Both the position numbers and the translations under genes were made by a program. Below, piece by piece: positions 16,354-24,930 of a DNA stretch of 64,000 bases (positions are counted from its first letter, which is position 1; each line of letters starts with the position of its first letter). This stretch comes from Candidatus Bathyarchaeota archaeon (GTDB lineage Archaea; Thermoproteota; Bathyarchaeia; TCS64), in assembly GCA_963769425.1 (NCBI GenBank), contig CAVYLP010000004.1, forward strand, positions 320,001-384,000. Direction: 5' to 3'. Under the pieces are notes generated by a model. That model was given only the letters and a program-made list of their open reading frames with translations. It searched no databases and was not told the DNA's origin.

Positions 16354-17685
16354 ATGGCTACCGAGACTCTCCCCGGCTACAGAGGGAAGCTCAGGGAGCT
16401 TCTCACCCGCGCTAGGGTCGGCGTGGGGGACGTGGTCAGGGTAAACAAGGGTGGCGAGGCATACGAGGGCACGCTCCTCCCCCGCGTCGAGAACGCCGAC
16501 GACTGGCACCTAATCATCAAGCAGAAGACCGGCTACAACATAGGGATCGCCCTCGTCAACGACCTACGCGTCGAGAAGATCGGGGAGGCCGTGAAGCCCG
16601 AGTTCAGGCCACCACCACTCCCCCCCGTGAAGGAGGGGCTGCCCAAGGTCAGCATCATAAGCACAGGCGGCACCATCGCAAGCCGCGTCGACTACGTAAC
16701 CGGCGGCGTCTATGCCGCGATGTCGAGTCGGGACCTACTCAGCATCGTCCCAGAGCTCGCAGACATCGCCCAGATCGAGGCGGACATCCTCTATAGCGTC
16801 TTCAGCGAGAACATCAACTCGGACCATTGGGAGGGCATTGCGAAGAGGGTGGCAGAGAAGATCAAGCAGGGCGCGGACGGCGTCATCATCACACACGGGA
16901 CAGACACGATGGGGTACAGCACCGCCGCACTCACGCTGGCGATCCAGAACCTCCCCGTCCCCGTCATCTTCGTCGGTAGCCAACGCAGTAGCGACCGCCC
17001 CAGCAGCGACTCCGCCACGAACCTAGTCGCAGTTGTCAACGCGGCGGCCCACGCCCCCTTCGCCGAGGTTGTCCTAGGCATGCACGAGGGCACGGGCGAC
17101 GACTCCATAATCTTCCACCCCGGCGCCAAGGTCCGCAAGTGCCACTCAAGCGCCCGCTACGCCTTCCAGACGGTGAACGCGAGCCCCGTAGCCCGATTCA
17201 GGGACGGTAAGATGGAGATGCTAGCCGAGCATTACCGGCCACGCCAGGACTCGGAGCCCATCATCATGAACAAGTTCGAGAAGAAGGTGGCGCTCGTCAA
17301 GTTCCACCCCGGATTCAACCCAATAATAATCGACGCCCTCATAGACGCGGGCTTCCGCGGCCTCGTCTTCGAGGGGACGGGCCTCGGCCACGTCTCCGAG
17401 ACGCTCTACGACGCCATCGGGCGCGCGGGGAAGGCGGGTTTGCTTATGGGTATGACGAGCCAGTGCATCTGGGGCCGCGTAAACATGAACGTCTACAGCA
17501 TGGGGCGGGAGCTAACACGCCGCGGCGTCGAGCCTCTTGAGGACATGCTCCCCGAGACCGCCTTAGTCAAGATGATGTGGAGCCTCGGCAACACGGGCAC
17601 CGCCGAGGAGGCGAAGAAGCTCCTCAAGACAAACGTCGCGGGGGAGTACAACCCCCGGACCCCGTACGCGAGGAGGGAGAAGTGA
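16354..17685 (+). CDS. gatD: Glu-tRNA(Gln) amidotransferase subunit D
   Basis: STGGTIASRVDY.TG, HGTDTM, GSQRSSDRPSSD and GTGLGH motifs. Confidence 0.97.
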   Translation: MATETLPGYRGKLRELLTRARVGVGDVVRVNKGGEAYEGTLLPRVENADDWHLIIKQKTGYNIGIALVNDLRVEKIGEAVKPEFRPPPLPPVKEGLPKVSIISTGGTIASRVDYVTGGVYAAMSSRDLLSIVPELADIAQIEADILYSVFSENINSDHWEGIAKRVAEKIKQGADGVIITHGTDTMGYSTAALTLAIQNLPVPVIFVGSQRSSDRPSSDSATNLVAVVNAAAHAPFAEVVLGMHEGTGDDSIIFHPGAKVRKCHSSARYAFQTVNASPVARFRDGKMEMLAEHYRPRQDSEPIIMNKFEKKVALVKFHPGFNPIIIDALIDAGFRGLVFEGTGLGHVSETLYDAIGRAGKAGLLMGMTSQCIWGRVNMNVYSMGRELTRRGVEPLEDMLPETALVKMMWSLGNTGTAEEAKKLLKTNVAGEYNPRTPYARREK

Positions 17686-19584
17686 TGGACTACAAGAAGA
17701 TAGGGCTAAAGGTCGGCATAGAGGTCCACCAGGAGCTCGCCACCGAGCACAAGCTCTTCTGCAGCTGCCCCCCGAGGCTCAGCGAGTCGGAGCCCGAGTT
17801 CAGGTTCCTGCGCCGCCTCCGTCCGAGCCAGAGTGAACTAGGCGAGTTCGACCCAGCCGCCCTATTCGAGTTCCTCAAGGGCAAGACTATACAGTACGAG
17901 GGCGACAGCGCCACAACATGTCTCGTCGAGATGGACGAGGAGCCCCCAGGACCCCTAGACCCCGAGACGCTTGAGCTGACCCTGAGCTTCGCCCTCATGG
18001 TGGGGAGCAAGCCTGTGGACGAGGTCCACGTGATGCGTAAGACCGTCGTGGATGGCAGCAACACGGGCGGGTTCCAGCGAACATGCGTCGTCAGCCTCGG
18101 TGGAGGCATTGAGGTCGACGGCAAACCGTACGGTATCCAGCAGATCAGTCTCGAGGAGGACGCCGCGAGGAACGTCGGCGAGGAGGGGAGCATCGTCCGC
18201 TACCGCCTCGACCGCCTCGGGATACCCCTCATGGAGATCGCTACTGCGCCTGACATGCACAACCCAGCGGAGGTCCAGGCAGTAGCACTCAGGATCGGTA
18301 GCTTACTCCGCGCCACCGGGAAGGTACGTAGGGGCCTTGGCACAATCCGCCAGGACGTGAACGTCTCGATAATGAACGGGAGAGGTCGTCGAGATCAAGG
18401 GCGTCCAGGATCTACCCCTGATGCCCACCATAGTCGAGTACGAGGCTCAGCGCCAGTGGAGCCTCCTAGAGATCAAGGAGGAGCTCCTTAAGCGCGGCGT
18501 GAAGCCCGAACACATTAAGGACGAGCAGCTCGACGTATCCACCATCTTCAAGGCGACCGAGTCAAAGATACTAAAGGGCGCGCTGAAGAATGGGGGTGTT
18601 GTTAGGGCGGTGAGACTCCCCGGCTTCGCAGGCCTGACCGGCAGGGAGCTATGCCCCAACAGACGCCTCGGCACCGAAATGAGCGACCACGCCAAGTACA
18701 AGGGCGGGGTCAAGGGAATCTTCCACACAGACGAGCTACCCGGCTACAGCATCACACAGGCCGAGGTCGACGCCCTACGCTCCGCCGCCCACGCCGCGGA
18801 GGGGGACGCCGTCGTCATAGTCGCTGATGAAGCGGAGAAGAGCAGACGAGCCCTGACGGCAGTAGTGGAGCGGGCACGGGATGTCTTCAACGGGATACCC
18901 TTGGAGACCCGGGCGGCGAACCCCGACGGGACTACCCGATTTACGCGGCCACGCCCCGGCGCAGCGCGCATGTACCCAGAGACGGATGTAAAGGCCATAA
19001 CCATAACCCCCGAGCACCTAGAGAAGCTCAGGGCGAGCCTACCCGAGATGCCGGAGGCCAAACTCAAGCGCTTCCAGAGTGACTACGGCCTCAACGAGAA
19101 GCTGGCGAGGCAGATCGTCGACAGCGAGTACATGGGCCTCTTCGAGGAGTTGACGCGCGAGTACAAGGCTCTTACTACACTCGCTGCGGTGACTCTTACT
19201 GAGGACCTGAAGAAGCTACAGAGGGACGGCGTCCCAGTTGAGGCGCTTACGGACAATGCCATACGCGGTACCTTCGCCCTTGTGGATTGCGGGGATACCG
19301 TGAAGGAGTCGGTCCCAGTAATACTCACGTGGCTCGTCCAGAACCCTTCCAGGAAGGCGAGGGATGCTATCACCGCCCTCGGGCTAGGTGTACTATCGGA
19401 AGAGAAGCTCGCTTCTGTCGTCGACGCGAAGATCAAGGCGAACACCGCGATGATCGCCAAGATAGGGGAGAAGGCTGCGGGGCCGATAATGGGTGCAGTC
19501 ATGGCGGAGGTACGCGGGAAGGCGAAGGCCACTGACGTGCAGGATATGATCGCGAGAAAGCTTAAGGAAGCACTCGCGAAGTAA
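17685..19584 (+). CDS. gatE: Glu-tRNA(Gln) amidotransferase subunit E, split by a single-base frameshift near 18378-18381
   Basis: MDYKKIGLKVGIEVHQ, DGSNTGGFQRT and GTIRQDVNVSI, then VVEIKGVQ and RPRPGAARMYPETD in the next frame; removing one G restores SIMNGEVVEIKGVQ. Confidence 0.93.
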
Positions 19585-19821
19585 TCCTTATTTTATAATA
19601 TTCGCTCATTCATAAGCGTATTATGATCAGGCTATGTATATCATCTCATAATTCTGAGACGTTATGCATTAAATCAGGATAATAATCTTGAATAAAGACC
19701 AAAAAACAACGATTTTTCATATTTAATCGCCTTTTTTAAAAAGGGTAACAAAACGCCGCAAGTTGTTCGACAACTGTTATAAGCCCCATAATACCAAGAG
19801 TAATACGAGTTGTGAGGATCC

Positions 19822-20265
19822 ATGAGCCGCCCGCTGTTTCATCTCAAAGTTAAGATCGGGGAGATGGAGGTAGAGCTAGGCGGGGACAAGGCAGAGGTCC
19901 TCAGCGCCCTCGACGAGCTCCCGAGTATAGTCGAGAAGGTCTCCGCGAGCTTCCAGGGTGAGTCCTCCGGTCACAGGCCACGCCCCCGGAAGCAGCCGGA
20001 GAACGGGGCCCCCGAGGCGTTGCCTCAGATTCCCCGGACCACCCAGTGCAGCGAGGCAGTGACCGCGCTCCTCGCGGACCCGTGGGGGAAGACTCCCCGA
20101 ACCATCGCGGAACTCAGGGAGGCTATGGAGGCAAACGCCGTCTTCTTCCCCAAAACGACCCTATCCGGGGTCCTCGTTTGGATGGTGAAGAAGGGGACCG
20201 TCAGAAGGTGGAAGGACAAGAAGAGGGGATACCTCTACACGATGAATACGCCGGAGCCCGAGTAG
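19822..20265 (+). CDS. Hypothetical protein: N-terminal beta-hairpin domain plus C-terminal winged helix
   Basis: LKVKIGEMEVELGG N-terminus; PRTIAELREAM...LSGVLVWMVKKGTVRR...GYLY wHTH pattern. Confidence 0.75.
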   Translation: MSRPLFHLKVKIGEMEVELGGDKAEVLSALDELPSIVEKVSASFQGESSGHRPRPRKQPENGAPEALPQIPRTTQCSEAVTALLADPWGKTPRTIAELREAMEANAVFFPKTTLSGVLVWMVKKGTVRRWKDKKRGYLYTMNTPEPE

Positions 20266-20266
20266 T

Positions 20267-20749
20267 ATGCCGAAGATAACGCTGACCGTCAAGACCCAGT
20301 TCGGGGACATACAGGTGTCGGGGGAGAACCCCGAGGAGCTTCTCAGCGGCCTAGACTGGCTCACACAAGAGTACGTAGCGCAGCTCAATGAGAAGGTCTC
20401 CGTGGTTGTCTCAAAGCAAGCCCTCGACCACCTGAAGGACATAGTCGAGATGAGGCGGGACGGCCCAATACTCGTCTGCAAGGAGGAGATAAGCCACTAC
20501 GAGGCTATCGGGTTACTCCTCTACGCGATGAAGGGTTACCAGGCGACGGGGAAGGAGTTGAAGGCTTTCCTCAACGAGAGCGGGCGCAAGGTGATAGTGC
20601 CCGCTCGGCTTCACGAGATGGTGAAGAAGGGCGTGCTCTTCCGCCCCGAGGGGAGGGGGAGTATCTACAAGCTGACGGCGAAGGGCGTCAACTGGGTGGA
20701 GAAGGAGGTTCTTCCGCCGATTCGGGAGAAGCAGGCTGCGTTGGCCTAG
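20267..20749 (+). CDS. Hypothetical protein: N-terminal beta-hairpin domain plus C-terminal winged helix
   Basis: ITLTVKTQFGDIQVSG N-terminus; ARLHEMVKKGVLF...YKLTAKG wing motif. Confidence 0.75.
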   Translation: MPKITLTVKTQFGDIQVSGENPEELLSGLDWLTQEYVAQLNEKVSVVVSKQALDHLKDIVEMRRDGPILVCKEEISHYEAIGLLLYAMKGYQATGKELKAFLNESGRKVIVPARLHEMVKKGVLFRPEGRGSIYKLTAKGVNWVEKEVLPPIREKQAALA

Positions 20750-21062
20750 GGTGTGCCCTTTCGTAGTCCTCGTACATGTCGGAAACAGTGACGAGTAGAC
20801 TGAGTATGATCTGCTTAGCTTCGCAGGTGTAGCCTCCGTCCTTGAATGGGCTGCGCTGTATGAGATTCTTCTCGAGGAGCTTCGACACCGCCCTCTCCGT
20901 CGCCTTGGGCGTGAGGTTGAGTTCCGTCGAGATCTCCTTCACCGTCATCGTCCTCGCAGTCCCCAGTAGGTGGAATACTATCTGGAACTGGCTCGGCGCC
21001 TTCCGTAGCTTGAGGAGCGTGTCCGTCCTGTCCCTTAGCTCGGCAAGCTGCTTCTCAGACAT
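20688..21062 (-). CDS. Small winged-helix (TrmB/MarR-like) protein
   Basis: MTVKEISTELNLTPKATERAVSKLLEKNLIQR. Confidence 0.8.
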   Translation of the reverse strand: MSEKQLAELRDRTDTLLKLRKAPSQFQIVFHLLGTARTMTVKEISTELNLTPKATERAVSKLLEKNLIQRSPFKDGGYTCEAKQIILSLLVTVSDMYEDYERAHPRPTQPASPESAEEPPSPPS

Positions 21063-21141
21063 CTTTTCCCGATGCCACTTTCTCTCATGACCTTTTAAAT
21101 GATACCTATCGGCGTGGAGCAGGGAGGTGGTCGAAAGTGGC

Positions 21142-21399
21142 TTACTTGTGCCCCATGTCCCGGTAGAGCTTCATGATCAAATCATAAGGCGTCACGACGG
21201 CGACGTAGCCCTCGGGGCGTGCCTCGACTAGGCCCTGCTTCTTCAACTCCGCGAGGCGCGCTCGGACCGTGGAGCCGTTCTCCCCCAGAACCACAGCGAT
21301 CTCCTGCGGCTTGAGGATGCTCCCCCTAAAGGCTAGGTGGCAGAGTATCTTGTAGGCTGAGGTCTCGGGTTCTAGCTGGTCGAGCTTCTCGGCGCTCAT
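21142..21399 (-). CDS. Small winged-helix protein
   Basis: LKPQEIAVVLGENGSTVRARLAELKKQGLV. Confidence 0.85.
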   Translation of the reverse strand: MSAEKLDQLEPETSAYKILCHLAFRGSILKPQEIAVVLGENGSTVRARLAELKKQGLVEARPEGYVAVVTPYDLIMKLYRDMGHK

Positions 21400-21662
21400 T
21401 TGGTGAAATACTCCTTGAGGAGCGTGACTAGGATGGGGCCGAGCTTGTAGCGGTAGACTCCGCGGCTGACGGGGTCGACGAGCCCCTTGTTCTTGAGATT
21501 GAAGAGGGCGATGTTGACGGCGTTGACGGTGAGCTTGAGTTTCTCGGCGATCTCCTGACTCGACATGGCCTCGCCGCTCTCAACGAGGCAGAGTAGCACC
21601 TGCTGCTGGCTTTCTGCTCGCCTCAGGCCCTCAAGCTCGTCCGCGCCAACCAACCCGGTCAC
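21396..21662 (-). CDS. Small winged-helix protein
   Basis: MSSQEIAEKLKLTVNAVNIALFNLKNKGLV..VSRGVY. Confidence 0.85.
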   Translation of the reverse strand: MTGLVGADELEGLRRAESQQQVLLCLVESGEAMSSQEIAEKLKLTVNAVNIALFNLKNKGLVDPVSRGVYRYKLGPILVTLLKEYFTK

Positions 21663-21916
21663 TTCTTCGCGAAGATGTATGAAACGAAGTCGGTGAAGGG
21701 GATGGCGCTTCTGTAGGTACCGTCTTCTTGCTGCTTGACGTAACCCTTGTCGAGGAGGCTACGGAGCGCTGGACGTACTGTGCCTGGGGCGATGCCTGTC
21801 TCCTCGCTAATAGCTCCAGGGAGGCTCGCGCCACGGAATGCCAGGTATGTTAGGGTCTTGAATTGCGCCGTATCCGGTTTGAGCTCTTGCGTCGCCTTAT
21901 CGATCAGCTCTGCCAA
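21659..21916 (-). CDS. Small winged-helix protein
   Basis: PGAISEETGIAPGTVRPALRSLLDKGYV. Confidence 0.85.
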   Translation of the reverse strand: MAELIDKATQELKPDTAQFKTLTYLAFRGASLPGAISEETGIAPGTVRPALRSLLDKGYVKQQEDGTYRSAIPFTDFVSYIFAKK

Positions 21917-21917
21917 T

Positions 21918-22163
21918 CTACTTCACCTGCTTCTCCAGTGCCTCAATTCTCTCCATTAGATGGATGACGATCCCTGCGTAGTTAGGCTCGTAGTTGCCCC
22001 GCCCGCTCCTTTGGAGGAGCCCTTCACGGGCCAGCTTGGCGAAGGCGTCCTTGACAGAGTTGTACTTAGCGTCGAGCTTGGCCGCCATCTGCTCGGGGCC
22101 GAGTGTTGGGTCTTGGAGGAAGCTGCGGAAAACCTTGTCCTTTAGGCTCAAATCCTCGGACAT
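21918..22163 (-). CDS. Small winged-helix protein
   Basis: GPEQMAAKLDAKYNSVKDAFAKLAREGLL..SGRGNY. Confidence 0.8.
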   Translation of the reverse strand: MSEDLSLKDKVFRSFLQDPTLGPEQMAAKLDAKYNSVKDAFAKLAREGLLQRSGRGNYEPNYAGIVIHLMERIEALEKQVK

Positions 22164-22333
22164 TTGATTAAAACTGGCCCGTACTTCTTATTAACTTTGT
22201 TTTTGACCTGGCGATGTCGGATCGCTCGTGGAGTGGTTTTACCGAGCGTTATCATTTCTTTATTTATATATAAAATGGCGTTTAAACCAAATTACGCTCT
22301 ATGCATTCGATCACTTTATATGTCTAGGAAAAA

Positions 22334-23431
22334 ATGTGTTGTGCAGGGACAGTTCTGGGGGTTAATCGTCGAGTGCTAAGTCTTGAGGAGCGGGCGGGGG
22401 TAATTGAGGGAGTACGGAGGCCGGGGGAGAGTCTGAGCCTCTCCATAAGGGACCTCCTGCTGGGCGAGATTTCGAGTGACGTGGCGTCTGAGCAACCCGC
22501 CGTCGCTGCCTTAGCTGCTAGGATCAGGGAGGAGATGAGCCTCTTCCCCATGACGAAGCATGAGGTATTCAAGAGAGTGGCTGGTGTGGACGCGGGGAGC
22601 CAGATCCTGCCCCTTGCATCGAAGAGGTATGGCGTCGTCAGCGCACTCGCCTACGGGCTTCCGGGGGGAGCTAAATTTTGGATGCGCCCCGAGTCGATGT
22701 CGCTTCCGTACGGTGTCGCGGGGAATAGGTTCGAGGGGATGGTGAACGCGAGGAGGGAGGCGAAGCTCTACGAGACCGCAGCCGTCTACCTAATTGCCCA
22801 CCCCGAGACCGAGCTACTCCTAGTCGACGGTCCACTCGCCTTCAGCGACTGGTGGAGGATGACGGGCTGCCACAAGGACCAGAAGAGGCTCCTCGACGCC
22901 GTCAACAATCTTCTTCACCTCGGCAGGGAAGCTGGTGTCGCCCTCGCCGGCGTCGTGAAGAGGCCGAGCGCCAGGTACCTCCTTTACCATCTCGGCATGC
23001 AGGGGGAGACTCAACTACCCGACAGCTTCCTCCTCCTCCACGCGCTGAGGCCGGGGGAGAGGACGGACATCTTCTCGCCGAAGTCCGCGCTGGCGCAGGC
23101 GAGCAGGCCCGCCGCCTTCATGGGCTCCCTAGACGTCCCCATCTACAGCTTCTATGCAAGGATGACACGGGAGTGGAGCCTCCCCCCCATTAGGGTGGAC
23201 CTCCCCGCCCACTGCCTCGGGGGGCTCGACGACGTCGCCGACTACTGCTATGGGACGGCGCTAAACAACGGCATACCTCTCCCCCTAGTGAAGGCGGACG
23301 AGGAGGTCAAGATAACCCGCCGCTTCATGGCGGAGGTCTACGGGGAGATACTGAGCAGGGTGAGCAGGCGCACCGGGGAGGTACGGGGGCTCGCGCCGTA
23401 CTGGGGTGAGGGCAGATGGATGGGGGCTTGA
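22334..23431 (+). CDS. NurA-domain nuclease (true start probably further downstream)
   Basis: VAGVDAGS, LLLVDGPL, GVVKR and GIPLPLVKADEEVKI motifs match the NurA RNase H-fold pattern. Confidence 0.8.
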   Translation: MCCAGTVLGVNRRVLSLEERAGVIEGVRRPGESLSLSIRDLLLGEISSDVASEQPAVAALAARIREEMSLFPMTKHEVFKRVAGVDAGSQILPLASKRYGVVSALAYGLPGGAKFWMRPESMSLPYGVAGNRFEGMVNARREAKLYETAAVYLIAHPETELLLVDGPLAFSDWWRMTGCHKDQKRLLDAVNNLLHLGREAGVALAGVVKRPSARYLLYHLGMQGETQLPDSFLLLHALRPGERTDIFSPKSALAQASRPAAFMGSLDVPIYSFYARMTREWSLPPIRVDLPAHCLGGLDDVADYCYGTALNNGIPLPLVKADEEVKITRRFMAEVYGEILSRVSRRTGEVRGLAPYWGEGRWMGA

Positions 23432-24930
23432 AGGTAGGGCATACCTACAGCCTGACGGGCGAGTACAGCATCGATAAGATCACTGTGCTCCTCATGAGGG
23501 GACGTGAGTTGGCGAAGGGCGACCTCGTCTACGTCAAGCACCCTAAGAACGGGTCACCCGTCGTTTACCAGGTCGTCAAGGTCTACCCCCACAAGCGGGT
23601 CCGCGAGTACGAGGAGGCCCTGCTCACAGAGGGGCGAGTCATAGACGACGCCGAGGACTCCAGTCTGCACGCAGAGGCGTACCAGTGGGGGTGGATGGAC
23701 GGGGAGGGCAGCCTCAGGCCGCTACGGTACCCACTCGCCCCAAACACGCAGGTCTTCGCGGCGGAGCGCGACCTTGTCGCGAAGTTCACGAAGCCGAACG
23801 GGGAGTGGAAGTTCCTACTCGGCACGGACCCGACGACCGACCTCGATGTTGAACTGGGTCTCTACCCGTTGATCCGGCAGAGCTGTCTCATCTGCGGGGC
23901 GGTTGGGACAGGGAAGACGACGACGGCAGTAAGCATGGTGGCACGCGCTGCAAACGCGAATCCCCCTGTCCGCTTCTTTATAGTCGATAAGGACGGGGAG
24001 TACAGCAGCTTAACCGACCGCCTCGGGGCGGGCGCCGTCCTCAAGGTACCTTGGAGCAGCTTCTTCCAGCCCGGTGACATCCCCTGGGACGACTACGTCG
24101 CCGAGTTCGGGTGGCAGAAGACGTGGTGGAACGCTAAGATACTCGTCCAGGCGCTGAAAGTCCTCTACGCGCAGGCCGCCACCGTCACGAAGGCGAACCT
24201 ACGTCGGGCTGTCACCATCGTAAGCCCCGAGAACCTGGGATTCAACAAGAAGTCGGAGGAGTGGGAGCTATACAGGGCACAGGTGGAGAACGCCATAAAC
24301 GCGAGCCGACTCATCCCCGAGGGCGAAGCCACCGTCCTAGACCCAGTCCAGCTCCTCAAGGAGAGGAAGATAATCATCATGGACCTTAGCGACGGCAAGG
24401 ACACTTGGGAGCAGAAGCACCTTGTTGTGGCTCAGGTTCTCCGGAAGATCTTCGGTGAGGCCCTGGAGAACAGGAAGTTCGGATGCATCGTACTGCTCGA
24501 GGAGGCGATGTACTACGCGCCTCAGCACGGCGTCTTCGAGATAGGTGAGAAGGAGAGCCGGGGGAAGCTACTTAGTGTCATCAAGGAGATCGCTACGAAC
24601 GGTGGGCGTAACGGCGTCGGCCTCTGGGCGGTGACGCAGCGCCTCGCTACCGTGGAGAAGACCGTAGTTACCCAGTGCGCTAACAACATTATCTGTCATG
24701 GTCTCGAGGACCTCGACAAGCAGCGCCTCGCAGAGATAATGGGGGACGAGTTTACGCAGCTCATAGGCGACTTGCCCCCGGGGGAGGCTATAGTGAAGGG
24801 AACCGCATTAAAGTGTCGGTTTCCTATCTGGGTCAAGGTGCTCCCCGAGGTCTACCCCGCGTCGAGCCTGAGTACCCCGATGAGTCGCTTTGTCCACATG
24901 GCATTGACCGAGGCGGCCGCTCCCCAATAA
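23428..24930 (+). CDS. HerA/FtsK-family ATPase (HAS-barrel-like N-terminus, DUF87-type)
   Basis: Walker A GAVGTGKT, IVDKDGEY, Walker B LLEEAMYYAP, GVGLWAVTQR and LPPGEAIV; the TTG start overlaps the nurA stop. Confidence 0.85.
   Translation: MKVGHTYSLTGEYSIDKITVLLMRGRELAKGDLVYVKHPKNGSPVVYQVVKVYPHKRVREYEEALLTEGRVIDDAEDSSLHAEAYQWGWMDGEGSLRPLRYPLAPNTQVFAAERDLVAKFTKPNGEWKFLLGTDPTTDLDVELGLYPLIRQSCLICGAVGTGKTTTAVSMVARAANANPPVRFFIVDKDGEYSSLTDRLGAGAVLKVPWSSFFQPGDIPWDDYVAEFGWQKTWWNAKILVQALKVLYAQAATVTKANLRRAVTIVSPENLGFNKKSEEWELYRAQVENAINASRLIPEGEATVLDPVQLLKERKIIIMDLSDGKDTWEQKHLVVAQVLRKIFGEALENRKFGCIVLLEEAMYYAPQHGVFEIGEKESRGKLLSVIKEIATNGGRNGVGLWAVTQRLATVEKTVVTQCANNIICHGLEDLDKQRLAEIMGDEFTQLIGDLPPGEAIVKGTALKCRFPIWVKVLPEVYPASSLSTPMSRFVHMALTEAAAPQ

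Follow-up and report, generated by a model that had tools for sequence, protein, structure and literature searches.

Bathyarchaeia are abundant, uncultured sediment archaea. In archaea, HerA-NurA is the end-resection machine that works with Mre11-Rad50, and small winged helix-turn-helix (wHTH) proteins are known from several families: AspA, the centromere-binding protein of pNOB8 in Sulfolobus, belongs to a partition cassette that also includes ParB and ParA, Lrs14 genes are scattered and not arrayed, and proteins of the ArsR, MarR and AspA types are normally homodimers; we know of no ArsR/SmtB or MarR family that forms a five-gene array. Here we describe seven adjacent wHTH genes, named A to G, from Candidatus Bathyarchaeota archaeon (assembly GCA_963769425.1, contig CAVYLP010000004.1, positions 320,001 to 384,000; this whole stretch of 64,000 nucleotides is called the window, and positions are counted from its first letter). 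The array occupies positions 19822 to 22163 and lies beside a second, divergent NurA-HerA pair, here called NurA2-HerA2. The seven genes are real, are vertically inherited and belong with NurA2-HerA2 to one conserved chromosomal module, and our preferred reading, held with about even confidence, is that they constitute the DNA-binding control and/or targeting set of this second nuclease-motor pair.

We call the window pair the second one because a canonical operon of nurA, herA, a Mre11-like metallophosphatase gene and a Rad50-like SMC ATPase gene lies on another contig of the same genome (C6:870026-876230, locus L128), with the canonical NurA gene at C6:874944-876230. The two systems share NurA and HerA domains above the Pfam cut-offs. 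NurA2 (22334-23431, plus strand) is a divergent NurA-family nuclease that matches PF09376 at 46 bits (cut-off 21), and HerA2 (23416-24930, plus strand), whose reading frame overlaps that of nurA2, is a divergent HerA-superfamily ATPase that matches PF01935 (DUF87) at 39.4 bits (cut-off 23.2). Against the NCBIfam model HerA_Thermprot (NF040937, cut-off 800), HerA2 scores 37 bits versus 171.5 bits for the canonical copy on C6. Whereas the canonical system clusters with Mre11-Rad50, the window pair has no adjacent Mre11 or Rad50 gene and stands beside the wHTH array instead. The first-pass annotation of this DNA, made from the letters and their translations, had recognized the array itself and missed its recurrent link to a second, divergent NurA-HerA pair.

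All seven open reading frames (ORFs) are present where that annotation had placed them. Gene A (19822-20265, 147 aa) and gene B (20267-20749, 160 aa) lie on the plus strand with a gap of 1 bp; A combines an N-terminal beta-hairpin/helix module, a linker and a weakly BlaI/MecI-like wHTH, and B a beta-hairpin/helix N-module, a wHTH and a C-terminal helix. The other five genes lie on the minus strand and encode the smaller proteins. G (21918-22163, 81 aa) opens the minus-strand operon and is the most divergent of the five, F (21659-21916, 85 aa) starts with TTG and has a helix a0 ahead of the wHTH and a C-terminal helix behind it, E (21396-21662, 88 aa) starts with GTG and is the best conserved of C to G, and D (21142-21399, 85 aa) and C (20688-21062, 124 aa) are small wHTH proteins whose nearest relatives in the array are F and E, respectively. 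Where the window has the TTG of F, orthologues have ATG. The tight coupling proposed for the minus-strand genes is borne out, with a gap of 1 bp between G and F and overlaps of 4 bp each between F and E and between E and D, while D and C are 79 bp apart and the convergent genes B and C overlap by 62 bp. Equally, D and F carry a common motif (TSAYKILCHLAFRG in D and TAQFKTLTYLAFRG in F), the hydrophobic C-terminal stretches quoted for the five small proteins are all present, and the array has the core-genome-like composition and AT-rich flanks described for it (GC fraction 0.43-0.47 at 19400-19999 and 0.49-0.52 at 22000-22599, versus 0.55-0.63 within the array). An Rfam scan of 19400-22500 gave no match at an E-value of 0.1 or below. 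In the window and its closest relatives, C ends in a tail of about 20 residues that is rich in P, S and E and of low complexity, and it is here that C overlaps the 3' end of B (20688-20749); distant C orthologues end at about 104 aa and do not overlap B.

To place the proteins among known folds, we examined AlphaFold2 (AF2) models together with profile and structure searches. The model of F, built from 54 sequences with a predicted local distance difference test score (pLDDT) of 93.3, shows a short N-terminal helix, a three-helix wHTH, a two-strand wing and, after the wing, a C-terminal helix (residues 74-84) that accounts for the hydrophobic stretch. Its structural matches are AspA, MecI, IclR-N, MarR and ArsR/SmtB; the match to AspA (PDB 4rs8, 5k1y, 5k5o) has a profile E-value of 4e-5 and 26 bits over 47 positions only, with a Foldseek template modelling (TM) score of 0.63 at an E-value of about 3e-3. 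Profile matches of protein E in the PDB are ST1889, ArsR, TFE and an Lrs14-like protein. The model of B (pLDDT 77) begins with a beta-hairpin (residues 4-19) and helices, followed by the wHTH and a C-terminal helix; in fold searches its C-terminal half matches PadR, MarR, F93 and AspA, the results being filled by the wHTH half. A sequence match to the PadR family (PF03551) above its cut-off was not found. PDB profile searches with A and B returned nothing below an E-value of 0.2, and the ESM Atlas returned for both only unnamed Bathyarchaeota clusters and weak Penicillinase_R/HTH clusters. In Pfam, the match of A to Penicillinase_R is weak and at 17.7 bits does not reach the cut-off, and B matches neither a Pfam nor an NCBIfam family.

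At the family level, C to G obtain generic wHTH matches only, mostly sub-threshold, in both Pfam and NCBIfam. Against PF01047 (MarR), C reaches 27.6 bits (cut-off 24.6), D, E and F reach 11.8-16.9 bits and G has no match; against PF12802, C to F reach 18.8-26.5 bits (cut-off 27) and G again has no match. MarR proteins are about 140-150 aa long with a separate helical dimerisation domain, whereas D to G, with 81-88 aa, are missing these additional dimerisation helices and the F model has one short helix on each side. The ArsR/SmtB architecture (a1-a2-a3-aR-b1-b2-a5, about 90-100 aa) is found here, yet the scores stay below the family cut-offs: C to F obtain 15-17.4 bits against PF01022 (cut-off 22), and C to E obtain 16.4-23.5 bits against NF033788 (cut-off 55), among whose listed matches F and G do not appear. 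A metal or ligand site is not evident in the array proteins. The Lrs14/Sta1 proteins of Sulfolobales (PDB 2d1h, 6cmv) resemble those of the array: they are small and archaeal, end their wHTH fold with a C-terminal helix and occur as several paralogues in a genome. They also provide the best NCBIfam match of C and E (NF040939, NF053606); this match, however, covers the HTH only (profile positions of about 20-69) at 26-28 bits versus cut-offs of 80-90, and the charge of the array proteins is near neutral. AspA differs in being encoded by a single gene, as opposed to five paralogues here.

Comparison of profiles with hhalign revealed how the seven proteins relate to each other. All ten pairs among C to G align with a probability of at least 94%: D and F are the closest (99.5%, E-value 3e-23, score 117), C and E follow (98.5%, score 85), and the remaining pairs lie at 94-97%, with G about equidistant from C, D, E and F (94-95%). 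A and B are remote from the five small proteins (B-D 46%, all other pairs at most 5%) and align with each other weakly but collinearly (29%, E-value 6e-4). In the genome of the window all seven genes are single-copy, and a search with any of the profiles ranks its own gene on top, followed by the rest of the array. As judged from these profile comparisons, C to G form one group of five paralogues built on a minimal ArsR/MarR/AspA-like module. Each small protein has its nearest relatives among the other four; the five do not belong to unrelated regulator families, which the first-pass annotation had named as fatal to its idea. The order G, F, E, D, C, with F and D forming one subfamily (I) and E and C the other (II), together with the pattern of similarity, fits a tandem duplication of a two-gene unit (F,E giving D,C) plus an older or faster-evolving fifth member, G; this duplication likely took place in the ancestor of the order. 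By the same profile comparisons, A and B belong to an older family that joins a beta-hairpin/helix N-module to a wHTH. The sole B-like relative outside the array in this genome is the C-terminal part of a 304-aa ORF on contig C6 (726536-727450; L129:1537-2451), which matches the B profile with an E-value of 1.4e-9 and whose roughly 200 N-terminal residues have no Pfam match.

Within the order, each of the seven ORFs has orthologues of 44-92% identity (48-89% for A), of conserved length, one per genome and in the same order in related genomes, and because this holds for every ORF the array is more than a chance run of reading frames. Gene F was found in 33 of 41 genomes: the window's own, each of the 32 others sampled from the order, and none of the eight that represent other families of the class. 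A profile of gene E (E-value of 1e-8 or below) found 15 of 81 class genomes: the window's own, all 14 others of the order, and none of 66 genomes of 25 other families. Conservation of the array had been named beforehand as its test, and the array passes it. In loci cut from whole genomes, G-F-E-D-C stood beside NurA-HerA in 16 of 16, with A present in 15 and B in 14; 60 loci from a named collection, nearly all titled Bathyarchaeota or Bathyarchaeia, have GatD-GatE-A-B, C to G and NurA-HerA nearly throughout, where the contig reaches. Every genome sampled from the order, and some of the other lineages sampled, retain a second, strongly diverged pair that is accompanied by wHTH arrays instead of Mre11-Rad50.

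Completeness and spacing of C to G were counted over 76 loci (L013-L088). All five genes were complete in 68 of them, which gave 53 distinct sets. Six of the eight incomplete loci are cut by contig ends (L030, L033, L040, L054, L077, L085), and L088 is a lone E-like paralogue on another contig. The remaining one, L049, has neither F, G nor NurA-HerA beside E, with HerA2 elsewhere in that genome; we do not count it as a true exception because a run of N sits exactly at the break. Spacing was tight or overlapping in all 53 sets for both G-F (median 1 nt, 23 overlaps) and E-D (median 2 nt, 23 overlaps), and in all 47 sets for A-B (median -1 nt). F and E are a median of 13 nt apart, and D and C a median of 52 nt, with more than 100 nt in 13 of the 53 sets. 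In three loci (L048, L050, L051), C lies about 0.9-1.7 kb from D, with something inserted between them.

Beyond the order, the family of A and B also occurs beside NurA-HerA. The A profile found relatives in 34 of 201 sampled Thermoproteota genomes. Twenty loci fetched around such matches have two or three B-like paralogues (150-170 aa) beside A and no C-G type gene, and 11 of the 20 contain, within the fetched stretch, a HerA-like gene as scored with a local hidden Markov model (HMM). The layouts differ between lineages. Three loci (L110, L114, L115) have a co-directional B-B'-B''-A-NurA-HerA; in three genomes of family f11, a HerA-like gene has a second A-like gene as its back-to-back or close neighbour, and one of these genomes (G170) has a NurA match alongside; and genome G192 has, on another contig, an A-like gene and a NurA/HerA-like pair standing back-to-back. 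In another class (L127), a HerA-like and a NurA-like gene (PF09376, 22.9 bits, cut-off 21) are followed by an A-like gene facing two B-like genes, and the HerA-like protein is 21% identical to that of the window. This layout of a HerA-like gene, an A-like gene and two B-like ones recurs in 11 of 11 loci from records of Candidatus Caldarchaeum, Nitrososphaerota and Nitrososphaeria. Other Bathyarchaeia families and Caldarchaeum-type archaea carry arrays of three or four A/B-family paralogues beside equally divergent NurA-HerA pairs, and this recurrence across classes with changed orientation argues against frozen synteny as its cause.

The B-like family as a whole is larger, with 982 representatives at an E-value of 0.001 or below in an exhaustive search, mostly stand-alone proteins of 150-180 aa. 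Among the longer proteins from this search none is a fusion to NurA or HerA, and a word-indexed search with the B-like alignment found no fused form among proteins of 306-2000 aa, which is weak evidence. A few longer members have other partners: one (P0121) carries two B-like parts behind a Ser/Thr protein kinase, another (P0249) has a B-like part followed by DUF488, and two (P0175, P0185) join a B-like part to an unnamed N-terminal domain of about 200 aa that holds a candidate PD...E.K-like stretch.

The DNA between the array and nurA2 carries conserved elements. We aligned the 200 nt upstream of G from 54 genomes spanning the order and took as conserved those blocks with at least 80% column identity. 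Three elements reached this level. The first, on the minus strand at 22188-22205, is the G promoter block CAAAA..AAAGTTAATAA. The other two make up a 56-bp control region (22244-22299) between G and nurA2, in which two arms in inverted orientation, GAGCG..ATTTC (22244-22258) and AAATTaCGCTC (22289-22299), bracket a TATA box (22263-22275). The left-arm pattern occurs once in the window, and a slightly looser version has five matches in the genome, of which the other four are not in a comparable setting. A second element is found in the spacer between D and C (21074-21141, minus strand): a perfect 9-bp inverted repeat, GCCACTTTC / GAAAGTGGC, with arms at 21133-21141 and 21074-21082, 50 bp apart. 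It begins right after the D stop codon, and between its arms is a TATA-like box that precedes C by about 35 nt; the arms are kept in those close relatives that have the spacer, and the pattern has two matches in the window versus 0.52 expected by chance. Both the dyad and the D-C repeat look like operators of dimeric wHTH repressors and are candidate sites. Further conserved blocks at 22315-22342 (TTTA..ATATC...GAAA and TGTTGT, plus strand) lie just upstream of the annotated nurA2 start and within it, so that the start codon and promoter of nurA2 are uncertain, and alignments of nurA2 orthologues start at residues 12-34.

These data suggest the following model. C to G probably form a single transcription unit, read from a conserved promoter that would stand back-to-back with the promoter of nurA2-herA2. 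The wHTH proteins would bind DNA as dimers, with the N- and C-terminal helices as the dimer interface by analogy with ArsR/SmtB and AspA. Both operons may be controlled by at least one array protein that sits on the TATA-box dyad in the G-nurA2 interval, and the whole set would form the control and/or DNA-targeting layer of the NurA2-HerA2 nuclease-motor. Neighbours (A with B, G with F, E with D or F with E, D with C) might conceivably pair as heterodimers. What the data show directly is the genes with their paralogy, conservation and fold class, the recurring neighbourhood and the conserved DNA elements; DNA binding, the assignment of proteins to sites and the functional tie to NurA2-HerA2 are inferred.

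Several observations weigh against this model. Five paralogues exceed what a simple autoregulator needs. The starts of E (GTG) and nurA2 are uncertain by a few codons. Close HerA2 orthologues are confined to the order of the window and family f14; in the phylum sample, f14 is the only source of such orthologues (57-59% identity) besides the window's own genome. Among the 20 A-family loci, nine lack a HerA-like gene within the fetched stretch, and in five of these nine (four from family f30 and one from f23) the A-like gene stands alone. Finally, the whole stretch from ELP3-GatDE to HerA-NUDIX-OTC is syntenic across the order, with the flanking housekeeping genes, which border the block in most of the loci counted above, as syntenic as the array, so that a fixed gene order alone proves little and adjacency within the order could be frozen gene order.

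A bolder reading is possible, if doubtful: the wHTH paralogues might form a hetero-oligomeric DNA-recognition complex that loads or aims the second NurA-HerA at particular DNA. Such a complex would be composed of A, B and the five small proteins here, while its counterpart in other Bathyarchaeia and Caldarchaeum-type archaea would combine A with two or three B-like proteins. Thermoproteota would then possess a DNA-processing machine that has not been described and is distinct from end resection by Mre11-Rad50, with possible roles in processing specific chromosomal sites, in handling imported or foreign DNA, or in chromosome resolution or segregation.

The first-pass annotation had argued from translational coupling that the paralogues form one stoichiometric hetero-oligomer, such as a nucleoid, segregation or combinatorial DNA-binding complex, and such a complex, with a job independent of NurA-HerA, we consider unlikely. 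Several findings agree with it: the tight G-F and E-D spacing across 53 sets, and A-B spacing across 47, makes co-translation of neighbours plausible, five small single-copy genes are kept in every sampled genome of the order, the two subfamilies alternate along the operon, and the closest small solved relative of F, AspA, is a centromere-binding segregation protein. Gene order as proof of a complex, however, is weak, since the operon is conserved no better than its unrelated flanks. Proteins of these types normally act as homodimers, and a ParA/ParB-type partner is missing: the Pfam matches of the block include no ParA or ParB family, and the neighbours are GatDE, NurA and HerA. A complex prediction of G, F, E and D, in which D was set as partner and the alignments had 50-53 rows, yielded values of 0.02 and 0.01 for the interaction prediction score from aligned errors (ipSAE), where the mark is 0.32; this speaks neither for binding nor against it. 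The charge of the proteins disfavours the bulk chromatin or nucleoid variant of the idea: the net values, 0 to +3 for those of the window and medians of +1 to +4 for their orthologues, are ordinary for regulators and low for abundant nucleoid proteins.

With a similarly low probability, the seven genes could encode separate small homodimeric transcription factors, each with its own regulon, that stay together only through rare rearrangement. The generic MarR/TrmB/IclR/ArsR matches would agree with this, as would the database names of F orthologues ('MarR/IclR family' or 'winged helix-turn-helix' proteins) and the equal synteny of the surrounding housekeeping genes; C, moreover, has its own promoter-like box in close relatives and lies far from D in the 13 widely spaced sets. 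Yet four of the genes probably share one promoter, with frames that overlap or nearly touch, and a search of the genome found no extra copies of the dyad arm that would suggest a wider regulon. A/B-type arrays and NurA-HerA pairs also occur together across classes in differing orientations, at a HerA identity of about 21%.

Winged helices also serve protein-protein contacts, as in ESCRT-II and the winged-helix subunits of eukaryotic initiation factors, and the array proteins might in this way be structural subunits of NurA2-HerA2 or of another complex and not DNA readers. We regard this as highly improbable. One B-like relative matches the ESCRT-II family EAP30/Vps22-Vps36 (PF04157) below threshold (18.8 bits, cut-off 26.8) and none of the seven window proteins does, whereas repressors that bind DNA come out on top in both the structure and the profile searches; the neighbours scanned include no gene for ESCRT-III or Vps4, and a term search of the main text of an ESCRT survey (PMC10936438) found no mention of HerA. 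Least probable of all, to the point of being barely conceivable, is a mobile or anti-virus island, a HerA-type defence system with wHTH regulators: HerA2 matches PADLOC and NCBIfam 'anti-phage HerA' models in part (68 and 46 bits) and the small proteins match the wHTH parts of CasR, Csa3, CARF and AbiEi models (about 17-22 bits), but these matches cover the shared ATPase core or the wHTH only and fall far below the NCBIfam cut-offs (46 versus 800), A, B and NurA2 have no PADLOC match and the block components match no defined system, and in all genomes sampled from the order the block keeps one chromosomal position, with gatDE on one side and housekeeping genes on the other, and has core-genome composition and no integrase, repeats or variable content seen.

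The fold class of these proteins is known, and what is new is the array and its partnership with a paralogous NurA-HerA pair. Full-text literature searches and the passages covered (PMC10936438, PMC13748450, PMC9905601) turned up no account of a second NurA-HerA accompanied by wHTH arrays, although supplementary tables such as those of arCOG neighbourhoods might list the families. The terms 'paralog' and 'HTH' are absent from the passages covered of a 2026 review of NurA (PMC13748450). If the wHTH set controls or targets the motor-nuclease, as in our preferred reading, the locus would represent a new archaeal genome-maintenance pathway and a multi-paralogue wHTH assembly of a kind rare in prokaryotes. 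The small, soluble-looking proteins and the 56-bp candidate operator make this testable in vitro without culturing the organism.

Two further observations concern the sampled loci and the neighbourhood. Two loci with bacterial titles, L060 (Candidatus Desulfaltia) and L074 (Krumholzibacteriaceae), contain the complete archaeal block with an E orthologue of 74-75% identity, and most likely are mis-binned contigs. Upstream of the array, GatE (17577-19584) is interrupted in the window, where it consists of one ORF at 17577-18491 and another, overlapping it in a different frame, at 18421-19584; in relatives it is a single ORF of about 630-640 aa; the split is a frameshift or an assembly error, and in three related long-contig loci (L024, L029, L068) HerA, GatE or GatD is likewise in pieces.

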